From a virus, in UHGV virus genome UHGV-0076931: 35,663 nt of DNA. The stretch is one strand, 5' to 3'. How positions within the stretch are numbered: position 1 is the stretch's first letter; each line of letters begins with the position of its first letter. Of the stretch, positions 25 through 1,097 are shown in pieces. The notes beneath the pieces are model-generated. The model was not told where the DNA came from and searched no databases. It saw only the letters and a list, made by a program, of their open reading frames with translations. The translations under genes were made by a program, and so were the position numbers.

Positions 25-50
25 AGCCCGCAACATTGCGGGCTTTGTCT
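25..50. terminator. GC-rich hairpin at the 3' end of the methyltransferase gene
   Basis: 9-bp stem agcccgcaa / ttgcgggct (25-33 / 37-45) with 3-nt loop, followed by a T-rich run on the + strand. Confidence 0.4.
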
Positions 51-841
51 TATGGTTCGATCGCCGTTTTGAGCCGTTGTGTTGCTACATCAAAATAATG
101 ATCACTGGTTTCTATACCAATAAATTTGCGTCCTGCTTTCAGTGCAGCCACACCCGTTGTCCCTGACCCCATAAAAGGATCAAGGACTGTTCCGCCACTA
201 TTCACAGTCCTGACCAGTTCCGCCATTAGTTCTTCTGGTTTTCCGGTCGGGTGCATTTTCTTTGACGGGATAACCGGGAACGTCATGCAGCCGTCGAACG
301 GTCCCGAAGGCGATTTATCTAAATGGCCTTTGCTGCCCCAGACGATGTATTCGCACTGATGCCGGAAATACCCGGTATGTGGTGTTCGTGACCCCCTCCC
401 TTTGTTCCACGCAATAATGCCGCGCCATGTAAAGCCACTGGCCTGAAACGCATCGGTTAAAGCTGGTAGTTGTCGCCAGTCAGTAAATACCAGGGCATAA
501 CCGCCCGGCCTGACTGCGCGGTGTGCCTGTGCCATCCATAATTGTGTCCAGTAAGCCCACGAACGGGCGTCCATGTTTTCACCCGCGAACCCATCAAAGC
601 GGTGAAGGTTCTCGCCGTTCAGATATTTTGCATGGCTGCCCTGGTTGGTGCGTCCGGCCTTGTGTGTCGCCCCCGAACTGTAAGGCGGGTCAGTGATTAA
701 GGCATCAATGCTTTCTGGCTCAATCAGCGGCAATATTTCCAGCGCATTCCCACGACAGAGCATGGCATTGTCAGTCTGATAAACCTTAGTGTGTTCCGGT
801 GTATGTGCTGGTTGGTGCTGGATTGCGATCCCCACGGTCAT
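50..841 (-). CDS. DNA methyltransferase, beta-class (N6-adenine or N4-cytosine)
   Basis: 263-aa ORF with catalytic DPPY motif near the N-terminus and AdoMet-binding FMGSGTT motif near the C-terminus; ATG at 841 preceded by GAGGAG. Confidence 0.85.
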   Translation of the reverse strand: MTVGIAIQHQPAHTPEHTKVYQTDNAMLCRGNALEILPLIEPESIDALITDPPYSSGATHKAGRTNQGSHAKYLNGENLHRFDGFAGENMDARSWAYWTQLWMAQAHRAVRPGGYALVFTDWRQLPALTDAFQASGFTWRGIIAWNKGRGSRTPHTGYFRHQCEYIVWGSKGHLDKSPSGPFDGCMTFPVIPSKKMHPTGKPEELMAELVRTVNSGGTVLDPFMGSGTTGVAALKAGRKFIGIETSDHYFDVATQRLKTAIEP

Positions 842-983
842 AACTCCTCATGTGTGTGGGGTGCTCGATGGCTCTCGTTATCTGGTTAAGTGTTTTGCAG
901 CGCGGACATTTTATTTCAATGTAGTGAAATGAGGCGCGGGCAAGTAGTTTGTTGCAATTTTTGCATCGTACATTTTGCGTCAT
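786..983 (-). CDS. com: Com-like zinc-finger protein (Mu Com family translational regulator)
   Basis: RCKNCNKLL...IEIKCPRCK motif as I recall it from phage Mu Com; 3' end overlaps the methyltransferase start out of frame; start taken at ATG 983 (AAGAGGTG SD), GTG at 992 also possible. Confidence 0.7.
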   Translation of the reverse strand: MTQNVRCKNCNKLLARASFHYIEIKCPRCKTLNQITRAIEHPTHMRSYDRGDRNPAPTSTYTGTH

Positions 984-1097
984 TTGCGGCACCTCTTGTG
1001 TGGTTACTGCTGTCGATATGATAACAAATCGATCGTTTTTATCGATCGGATTTATTGCATCGATCTGTTATGCCTATTGCTTATGGATGGGGATACC

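Follow-up and report, generated by a model that had tools for sequence, protein, structure and literature searches.

Organization of the com-methyltransferase unit

The window, i.e., the whole stretch of 35,663 nucleotides of the virus genome UHGV-0076931 that was analysed, contains close to its first nucleotide a unit of two minus-strand genes, com and a DNA methyltransferase (MTase) gene, which are located in an E. coli P2-like prophage of the P88/Xuanwuvirus type, at its variable right end. Of 5426 complete E. coli genomes, about 149 carry the unit. As in the Mu com-mom module, com is placed directly upstream of a DNA-modification gene and overlaps with it within one transcription unit. The following features were located (window coordinates):

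24..45, strand not assigned: GC-rich hairpin directly past the MTase stop codon at the prophage end, terminator-like on the plus strand
50..841, minus strand: orphan beta-class DNA amino-methyltransferase, 263 aa (Pfam PF01555, PHROG_67, DPPY...FxGxG motifs)
786..983, minus strand: com, predicted Cys4 zinc-ribbon translational activator, 65 aa, ATG start (Pfam PF10122, PHROG gpCom)
830..861, minus strand: predicted translation inhibition hairpin, 32 nt (outer stem 861-856/835-830, inner stem 852-848/843-839)
833..835, minus strand: GTG, probable true MTase start, in frame and two codons past the annotated ATG (841-839)
862..876, minus strand: predicted Com binding site GAGAGCCAUCGAGCA with the core CC-AUC-GAG (871-864), matching the SELEX/SHAPE motif
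1018..1045, minus strand: predicted sigma-70-like promoter TCGATA-16-TATCAT (9/12 in a consensus scan, TG extended -10)
1032..1068, minus strand: OxyR-like tetramer site with three GATCGAT (Dam) sites, candidate methylation-sensitive operator
1105..1132, minus strand: intrinsic terminator of the hok unit, 10-bp stem followed by UUUUCUUUUU

A first-pass annotation had described an out-of-frame overlap with the first ~18 MTase codons, and indeed the two reading frames share 56 nt (786-841, ~18.7 codons). The terminator lies to one side of the unit and the GC-rich hairpin to the other. Since the terminator ends the upstream hok unit, com and the MTase gene form a separate transcription unit, while termination of their transcript at the far side is uncertain, as the hairpin has no U tract on the minus strand. 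The MTase gene has com and hok to one side, while to the other the prophage ends and the host gene flk follows; no restriction endonuclease gene is among these neighbours, indicating an orphan MTase rather than a Type II restriction-modification system. A PADLOC search matched only generic type II/orphan methyltransferase models; Com and the PIN protein had no match.

The methyltransferase

The assignment of the larger gene to the DPPY-type MTases was borne out, with matches to Pfam PF01555 (N6_N4_Mtase; 3.4e-33, 115.9 bits, cut-off 26.7) and PHROG_67 (4.9e-81), although in NCBIfam no family cut-off was reached. The DPPY motif (IV) is located at aa 51-54 and is followed by the target recognition region and the FxGxG motif (I), which is present as FMGSGTT at aa 222-228 near the C-terminus, and this order is that of the beta class. 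The nearest solved structures are those of DpnA, CcrM and MboIIA, the best chain being a DpnA-type adenine MTase (5hek, 8e-21), and the sequence suggests that the target base is probably N6-adenine. A relaxed specificity is possible; if so, the enzyme could serve for footprinting in the manner of Hia5 and M.EcoGII. The enzyme is itself neither M.EcoGII nor a close relative, since the 352-aa M.EcoGII homologue of phage 1720a-02 resembles it at the level of motifs only, with 23-32% identity confined to two short blocks, nor does it belong to the Hia5/Hin1523 family, as the Hin1523 type is D12-like and clusters apart. Among cultured phages the closest homologues are found in Ralstonia YO160_4 (43%) and Burkholderia vB_FUB26 (41%). 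Upstream of the latter, the one homologue that was examined for this, no com is annotated, so that the MTase subfamily is not always linked to Com.

Com and its predicted RNA site

The smaller reading frame had been annotated as a Com-like Cys4 protein of 65 aa. It carries four cysteines in two CxxC pairs, matches Pfam Zn_ribbon_Com (44.5 bits, cut-off 22.9, E 1.1e-11) and the PHROG 'gpCom control of modification' (2.3e-17), and shares 60% identity over 42 aa of the zinc-ribbon region with Mu Com (E = 1e-15), so that the homology search that had been suggested as a check identifies it by sequence as a true member of the Com family. Invariant among 25 homologues are R6, C7, C10, K12, L13 and L14, as well as E23, C26, R28, C29 and K30. 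No NCBIfam model matches the protein, and a PDB search returned only chance-level matches to eS27 zinc ribbons. A Shine-Dalgarno sequence (AAGAGG, 997-992) is located 8 nt ahead of the ATG; an alternative upstream start, a GTG at 992, three codons before the ATG, would yield a protein of 68 aa.

The RNA motif bound by Com, CC(N)2-3GAG, has been defined experimentally (PMC6483171). In the window the motif CCAUCGAG is found 2 nt 5' of the hairpin stem, where it aligns with CCUGCGAG of Mu, and the predicted site as a whole aligns with GAAUGCCUGCGAGCA of Mu (Mu sequence from PMC6483171). The local hairpin at the Com site is weaker than that of Mu (-0.5 vs -2.4 kcal/mol) and contains an A.A mismatch. 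Across 25 distinct sequences three codons, Ala GCC, Glu GAG and Pro CCC, never change at their synonymous third position, while the codon in between is free to vary, and this invariance at RNA-critical codons is read as RNA-level selection.

A hairpin encloses the start region of the methyltransferase

The six-base-pair stem CCCCAC/GTGGGG that had been noticed around the GAGGAG and ATG of the MTase is present as described: in the mRNA, CCCCAC (861-856) pairs with GUGGGG (835-830) and encloses the Shine-Dalgarno sequence GAGGAG (849-844) and the AUG (841-839). Folding of the RNA, also proposed as a check, gave a hairpin of -14.3 kcal/mol (z = -2.5; 1 of 200 shuffles was equally stable when 38 nt were folded) and added an inner stem between CAUGA (852-848) and UUAUG (843-839), by which the AUG itself becomes paired. 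The MTase start has a pairing probability of 1.0, both candidate start codons are paired, and part of the Shine-Dalgarno sequence is placed in the apical loop, such that the predicted hairpin sequesters the start codon and ribosome binding site of the cargo gene. Each of the 25 distinct cassette sequences from enterobacteria keeps the stem paired. Within this alignable set five of the six stem pairs are invariant and one outer pair covaries (C-G in 15, U-A in 9, U-G in 1), so that covariation is thin, being limited to one pair per helix, and may reflect only one or two events. More distant cassettes have different stems, which are not alignable column by column. Rfam contains no com/mom leader family, and near the locus none of its families reached the gathering threshold; at E values up to 1 only weak, unrelated matches were found between 700 and 1500.

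As for the start codon, ATG 841 had been taken as the MTase start, and it is indeed enclosed by the stem, but the true start is probably the GTG at 835 in the 3' arm, that is, within the stem. This is suggested by the spacing to GAGGAG (2 nt for ATG 841 vs 8 nt for GTG 835), by sister cassettes with C5 and Mom cargo, in which no start other than the GTG of the 3' arm is available, and by homology to Mu mom, the start of which is a GUG within the stem (PMC6483171).

A predicted Pmom-like promoter module upstream of com

The likeness to Mu control reaches upstream of the interval 50-992, to which the first-pass annotation was confined, into a Dam/OxyR-type promoter module. GATCGAT occurs three times in the window (1065-1059, 1047-1041 and 1034-1028), all inside 38 nt, and the spacings of 18 and 13 nt are the same as those of GATC I-III of Mu Pmom, for which control by Dam and OxyR has been stated (PMC2909390). 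The predicted OxyR site agrees with ATAGnTnnnAnCTAT-N7-ATAGnTnnnAnCTAT at 15 of 20 specified positions, compared with 13 of 20 for Mu's own site, against a background in which 8 of 2000 random 140-nt windows score at least 14. Thus, a Pmom-type three-GATC cluster inside a putative OxyR site precedes com. Enterobacterial cassettes keep the module irrespective of their cargo; almost all non-enterobacterial ones lack it. The predicted promoter, placed between the hok terminator and com, overlaps with GATC II and III, and its -35 element and spacer lie within the OxyR-like site. The distance from GATC III to the com ATG is ~48 nt, compared with ~84 nt in Mu. By inspection, the C-activator region of Mu, a segment of ~35 nt with TTATGCCCCAATAA, which we take to be the match to the C-site consensus, is absent here, and transcriptional activation must therefore differ from that in Mu. 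A search by eye upstream of com for an Ogr-type TGT-N12-ACA element found none, and a TGT-N10-ACA is too near com.

One cassette with exchangeable cargo

An HMM search for com collected 160 loci, in which the gene directly behind com nearly always encodes a DNA-modification enzyme (D12 in 56, Mom in 37, N6_N4 in 35, C5 in 11 and Hin1523-like in 9 loci), so that Mom, Dam-like, Hia5-like, C5 and beta-class methyltransferases are all found as cargo. Among the unique junction sequences of these loci, the start codon is predicted to be paired with P ~0.9 in four cargo classes, and nearly all have CC(N1-3)GAG no more than 60 nt upstream. Of the 59 sequences with Mom, N6N4 or C5 cargo, 55 have this motif directly adjoining the 5' arm or reaching into it. 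In these three classes and in the D12 class, com as a rule runs into the start of the cargo gene. Two loci with different cargo, L109 (Mom) and L121 (C5), have the same sequence up to and including GUGGGGAACA but are unrelated beyond it, and the 3' arm of the hairpin is retained ahead of three unrelated cargo genes. From these sequences, enterobacterial P2-like prophages carry one cassette with different cargo, exchanged within a few nucleotides past the hairpin.

Comparison with known systems

The hairpin is homologous in position and sequence to that of Mu com-mom, with GAGCACCCCAC...GUGGGG in the window and GAGCAUCCCAC...GUGGGA in Mu. Both have the arrangement GAGCAYCCCAC...GUGGG(G/A) with CC-N3-GAG in the same place, a stem of the form (U/C)CCCAC/GUGGG(A/G) (CCCCAC/GUGGGG in the window, UCCCAC/GUGGGA in Mu) with a GUG inside the 3' arm, a com gene overlapping the cargo start, and three GATCGA-type sites with 18/13-nt spacing. 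By contrast, the loop comprises 11 nt in Mu but 20 nt in the window, where it contains the inner stem and an extra AUG; Mu is a transposable phage, whereas the element here is a P2-like prophage. Since the cargo of Mu is Mom (PF25680, 2.4e-75) and that of the window a PF01555 enzyme, the locus is, strictly speaking, a com-methyltransferase unit rather than a com-mom operon.

Com homologues preceding DNA adenine methyltransferases that stand in for Mom are known from FluMu (Hin1523), Hia5, Pnm1 (Nma1821) and phage B3 (ORF47/48), and the non-specificity of these enzymes has been demonstrated experimentally (PMC3299994). The Haemophilus loci of the survey (L056 and L080) likewise have the Com motif, together with a hairpin in which the start is paired. 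These systems differ from the window in that the enzymes are Dam-related (D12-like, with alpha-type motif order) rather than beta-class, com of Haemophilus encodes 39 aa and stops short of the cargo gene, whereas com of the window encodes 65 aa and overlaps it, and the prophages are Mu-like rather than P2-like. Closer is the Burkholderia P2-like phage KS5, in which gene 21, a 'Com translational regulator', overlaps gene 20, an 'N-4/N-6 DNA methylase', an annotation that was given without analysis of the control (PMC3091744). KS5 also belongs to the Peduoviridae and shares with the window the MTase subfamily (gp20 is 41% identical over 230 aa, with E = 8e-59), a Com homologue that is 34% identical, the overlap of reading frames and a CC-N3-GAG followed by a hairpin; in the KS5 hairpin (CCUC/GAGG), however, it is the Shine-Dalgarno sequence and not the start codon that is hidden, and the unit is located between tail genes instead of at the att end. 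The Com plus methyltransferase arrangement is thus already known, being published for FluMu/Hia5, B3 and KS5 and routinely annotated (PGAP, Pharokka; PMC3299994; PMC3091744). Prophage-encoded beta-class enzymes with DPPY...FxGxG motifs also include M.EcoGII and M.EcoGI, non-specific adenine methyltransferases of E. coli lambdoid prophages that are silent in the lysogen and harmful if expressed constitutively (PMC5778455). The M.EcoGII-type enzyme has 352 aa and is encoded downstream of antiterminator Q and not behind com, whereas the MTase of the window has 263 aa and follows com.

A Mu mom-type lock and alternative explanations

The proposal that the logic of Mu Com is here wired to a methyltransferase holds at the sequence level, because Com, the hairpin and the Com site are homologous to those of Mu and the stem is conserved. 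We consider it likely (probability roughly 0.8) that the unit is a Mu mom-type, multi-layer expression lock that drives an orphan beta-class DNA methyltransferase in place of Mom. Homology and conservation of Com, the RNA motif, the hairpin and the GATC module are read from the alignments; we infer OxyR/Dam control, Com-dependent translation, the timing of expression, and the target and role of the enzyme. Transcription would start from a weak sigma-70-type promoter embedded in the three-GATC OxyR-like site. In analogy to Pmom, binding of OxyR to this site would cause repression as long as the GATC sites are un- or hemi-methylated, and Dam methylation would lift it. com would be translated from its own Shine-Dalgarno sequence, and the 32-nt hairpin would lock the initiation region of the MTase (GAGGAG, AUG 841 and GUG 835) until Com, bound to CC-AUC-GAG two nucleotides 5' of the hairpin, opens it and allows initiation, most likely at GUG 835. 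The MTase would then methylate DNA, probably at adenine N6, and thereby protect progeny phage DNA from restriction. A lock this tight implies that uncontrolled expression of the MTase harms the host.

The entire hairpin and both candidate starts are located inside the com reading frame, so that ribosomes translating com, which pass 861-830 before the stop at 786, could open the hairpin without Com. If such passage were the main way of opening it, MTase synthesis would follow com translation in cis with no need for Com binding, and the prevalence of com/cargo-start overlaps in four cargo classes agrees with this. We regard this coupling as unlikely, however, since Mu has the same geometry and yet its Com has been described as an activator that binds the mRNA (PMC6483171). 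Moreover, com of the Haemophilus-type locus L056 stops 56 nt before the cargo start, ruling out ribosome passage as the mechanism there, but the Com motif and the start-pairing hairpin are kept; nor does coupling alone explain why CC-N3-GAG is conserved at synonymous sites. It is highly improbable that Com is instead a DNA-binding transcription factor beside an incidental hairpin. This is what its PGAP/RefSeq product name says ('Com family DNA-binding transcriptional regulator'), but the label appears to be generic and misleading, and we know of no evidence for DNA binding by Com. By contrast, the Com proteins of Mu and H. sputorum bind RNA specifically at CC(N)2-3GAG (PMC6483171), the motif that is present beside the hairpin of the window.

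The promoter module bears on a further explanation, in which the unit is expressed in the lysogen through a Dam/OxyR epigenetic ON/OFF switch like those of agn43 and gtr and generates subpopulations with altered methylomes, rather than serving late lytic anti-restriction. The position of the OxyR-like site over the predicted -35 and spacer would fit with this, as would the 13-nt spacing of GATC II and III, which is also the spacing within the GATC pairs of gtr (PMC2909390), and the nature of the unit, a moron (accessory gene unit) that is terminated separately and sits at the end of the prophage. Nevertheless, we consider this improbable, as phase variation is undemonstrated even for Mu mom (PMC2909390) and the additional Com/hairpin layer suggests strict silencing. 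A bolder variant, in which a subpopulation of lysogens expresses com and a broad-specificity adenine methyltransferase via a heritable Dam/OxyR switch, with Com and the hairpin as a noise filter, is speculative and we would not expect it to hold; if true, it would be a prophage-borne epigenetic switch that controls an epigenetic writer. In a milder version, the MTase may represent a third, structurally distinct, low-specificity family of 'Mom substitutes' carried in the portable lock, the swap point of which may be directly 3' of GUGGGG.

With the Mu mom-type lock as the preferred reading, the locus itself is ordinary, but the control unit of Mu mom becomes a portable lock that phages put ahead of different DNA-modifying enzymes, and a silent Com-locked MTase would be invisible in the methylome of the lysogen.

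Com, the methyltransferase and the start-codon hairpin

The first-pass annotation had described a 65-aa Com-like Cys4 protein whose gene overlaps, out of frame, the 5' end of a DPPY-type methyltransferase gene, and a CCCCAC/GUGGGG stem around the GAGGAG and ATG of the latter. Each of these elements is borne out, and that reading can be refined in three ways, all from sequence: the methyltransferase probably starts at a GUG within the stem, a predicted Com motif is identified, and a putative Mu-type Dam/OxyR promoter module lies upstream, beyond the coordinates given there. The features are:

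786-983, minus strand: com, 65 aa counted from ATG, two CxxC pairs
871-864, minus strand: predicted Com motif CC-AUC-GAG, 2 nt ahead of the stem
861-856 / 835-830, minus strand: outer stem of the hairpin, CCCCAC/GUGGGG, enclosing GAGGAG (849-844) and ATG (841-839)
835-833, minus strand: in-frame GUG inside the 3' arm of the hairpin
50-841, minus strand: methyltransferase, PF01555, with DPPY towards the N-terminus and FxGxG towards the C-terminus
Overlapping GATC II and III, minus strand: predicted sigma-70-like promoter TCGATA-16-TATCAT with TG extension

The Com protein matches Pfam Zn_ribbon_Com above threshold and the PHROG 'gpCom control of modification', and the overlap of the two ORFs amounts to 56 nt. 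In RNA folding the 38-nt hairpin element reaches -14.3 kcal/mol, a stability equalled by 1 of 200 dinucleotide shuffles, and contains an extra inner stem of 5 bp that pairs the AUG of the methyltransferase. Translation probably starts at GUG 835 rather than at this AUG, since the GUG lies 8 nt from GAGGAG and the annotated AUG only 2 nt, and since in sister cassettes with other cargo (the DNA-modification gene directly behind com) the GUG in the 3' arm is the sole possible start. The two starts yield proteins that differ by two residues.

The order of DPPY and then FxGxG assigns the methyltransferase, as judged from its motifs, to the beta class, and the DPPY form of motif IV suggests methylation of N6-adenine rather than N4-cytosine. 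Among solved chains, DpnA-type adenine methyltransferases (5hek, 8e-21) come closest, followed by CcrM, while M.EcoGII-type enzymes are only remotely related. No endonuclease gene adjoins the methyltransferase gene, which makes it an orphan enzyme. Com-locked enzymes, Mom and Hin1523/Hia5 among them, have a broad specificity and do harm if uncontrolled (PMC3299994), so that by analogy a relaxed specificity is plausible here as well.

Likeness to Mu com-mom

The com-mom region of Mu was fetched and compared with the cassette. The expected Com homology is found, with 60% identity between the two proteins over the zinc ribbon and on through the motif A-x-E-H-P-T. The Mu RNA reads GAAUGCCUGCGAGCAUCCCAC-GGAGAAACAUU-GUGGGAA and the window RNA GAGAGCCAUCGAGCACCCCAC-(20 nt with GAGGAG)-GUGGGGAU. 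Com of Mu targets CC(N)2-3GAG within a small hairpin adjoining the translation inhibition structure, the stem of which holds the GUG start of mom (PMC6483171), and the predicted motif of the window fits this consensus. At the level of sequence, the comparison supports Com/hairpin control of the methyltransferase by the Mu-type logic that the first-pass annotation had proposed.

Conservation and exchange of cargo

The six-pair stem is paired in all of the 25 distinct enterobacterial sequences that could be aligned; five pairs are constant, and the outer pair is C-G in 15, U-A in nine and U-G in one. The com codons within the motif and stem (Ala GCC, Glu GAG, Pro CCC, Gly GGG) have invariant third positions, while the codon between CC and GAG of the motif varies freely. 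Since the Com tail is disordered and not needed for RNA binding (PMC6483171), this synonymous-site pattern points to selection on the RNA. Covariation alone, with one pair and probably few events, is thin support for the stem; the retention of the 3' arm ahead of unrelated genes is the stronger argument.

Such retention is seen in two viral contigs, L109 with Mom and L121 with a C5 methyltransferase as cargo, which agree in 59 of the 60 nt leading up to and including GUGGGGAACA but are unrelated beyond. Divergence begins within about 5 nt of the GUGGGG arm, at a junction about 154-170 nt past the com start, which places the swap point of the cargo at the hairpin boundary. The hairpin thus marks the boundary of a portable control cassette to which the first two cargo codons belong. 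The window carries a more distantly related form of this unit, with a third cargo and a Com that shares about 62-65% identity with that of the L109/L121 type.

A set of 160 Com-homologue loci was drawn from species-representative genomes and from viral contigs. Immediately behind com lies a gene for a D12/Dam-type methyltransferase in 56 of them, for Mom in 37, for a PF01555 methyltransferase, the class of the window, in 35, for a C5 cytosine methyltransferase in 11 and for a Hin1523/Hia5-type enzyme in nine, with few exceptions to DNA-modification cargo. Unique junctions among these loci numbered 122, of which 119 had a cargo ORF downstream and could be folded. In the Mom, PF01555, C5 and Hin1523 classes the cargo start codon is paired with a probability of about 0.9, whereas in the D12 class pairing more often involves the Shine-Dalgarno sequence. 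Nearly all junctions carry CC(N1-3)GAG at most 60 nt upstream. Of the 59 sequences from the Mom, PF01555 and C5 classes, 55 have this motif bordering on or overlapping with the 5' arm of the start-codon helix. In distant relatives the hairpin is made of other sequences in the same geometry (GCGUCAC/GUGACGC in Pseudoalteromonas, CAUCCA/UGGAUG in Neisseria, GCCAUGAG/CUCAUGGC at several D12 loci).

In many non-enterobacterial cassettes (L012, L051, L049, L056 and others) the Com motif GCCAUGAG is itself the 5' arm and pairs with CUCAUGGC around the cargo AUG, an arrangement in which Com binding would compete with sequestration of the start codon for the same nucleotides.

The upstream GATC module

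The whole window contains three GATCGAT heptamers, all at 1065-1028 on one strand. Their GATCs are spaced by 18 and 13 nt, precisely like GATC I-III ahead of com in Mu. A candidate OxyR site of 37 nt (1068-1032) matches 15 of the 20 specified positions of the tetramer consensus, compared with 13 of 20 for the homologous Mu site; of 2000 random 140-nt windows drawn from this sequence, only 8 reach at least 14 matches, and most of these probably overlap the same site. OxyR reportedly binds Pmom when this is unmethylated or hemimethylated. Control of mom by Dam and OxyR is stated in PMC2909390. Two or three such GATCs precede com in enterobacterial cassettes with any cargo and in almost no non-enterobacterial ones, and thus relate to host Dam rather than to the specificity of the cargo enzyme. 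The Mu segment holding the C-activator site is missing in the window, and no Ogr-type element was seen upstream of com.

Several variants of this region were noted. In the paired-GATC module CGATCG-N7-CGATCG (1028-1049) the AT-rich spacer is ATAAAAA in the window and, in the opposite orientation, TTTTTAT in C5/Mom P2-type cassettes (upstream regions of L006 and L121), as if a palindrome loop had been inverted. Two viral-contig variants of the window cassette, L106 and L107, have lost all three GATC sites, with AAATCAAT instead of the GATCGAT repeats, but keep com, hairpin and methyltransferase, and are natural candidates for Dam/OxyR-independent expression. A Gram-positive genome record labelled Vagococcus sp. 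WN89Y (L005) carries an E. coli-type com-methyltransferase cassette whose Com is 92% identical and in which all sequence between the first GATCGAT and the third is deleted. Contamination of the assembly or a wrong label is the probable explanation.

Relation to described systems

Com homologues followed by adenine methyltransferases are known from FluMu, Pnm1, an H. aegyptius island and phage B3 (PMC3299994). The annotation of the P2-like Burkholderia phage KS5 has a gene for a 'Com translational regulator' that overlaps the gene for an 'N-4/N-6 DNA methylase' (PMC3091744), and this methylase (gp20) belongs to the same subfamily as the window enzyme (41% identity). RefSeq and phage annotation pipelines already label com and the methyltransferase. 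A search of the open literature found neither an analysis of this E. coli cassette's hairpin, Com site or GATC module nor a survey of Com cargo classes. The present results on these points extend an established model and do not describe a new kind of system.

Prophage setting

The window is a P2-like prophage of E. coli. Several E. coli chromosomes match positions 1-1900 at 100% identity and phage Chuche matches them at 97%; at least 80% of this segment is found in 149 of 5426 complete genomes. On the minus strand, from 3000 to 1, the order is an AT-rich PIN_12 gene, ogr, a hok-family toxin, a terminator (1132-1105), com, the DNA methyltransferase, a hairpin and the prophage end, which adjoins the host gene flk in strain B1172. 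The com-methyltransferase locus occupies the variable right end of a P2-type genome, a hotspot for acquired genes (PMC3091744).

The hok/mok-type ORF between ogr and com (1219-1496, minus strand, 46 aa) matches Pfam HOK_GEF (3.7e-7) and a MokW-like PHROG, and just upstream of it lies a weak sok-like Rfam match (26 bits, under the gathering score of 59). The PIN_12-domain gene (1896-2966, minus strand, 356 aa), inserted between ogr and the tail gene, has a GC content of 32-36% compared with about 50-55% in its neighbours. Phage Chuche, although 97% identical otherwise, lacks the gene, and PADLOC gives no match for it; it may be an accessory or defence gene. At 31229-31426 (minus strand) a C4 antisense RNA matches Rfam above the gathering score (83 bits) and adjoins an isrK match (64 bits, likewise above), which points to an immunity element of the P1/P7 antisense RNA type within this P2-like prophage.
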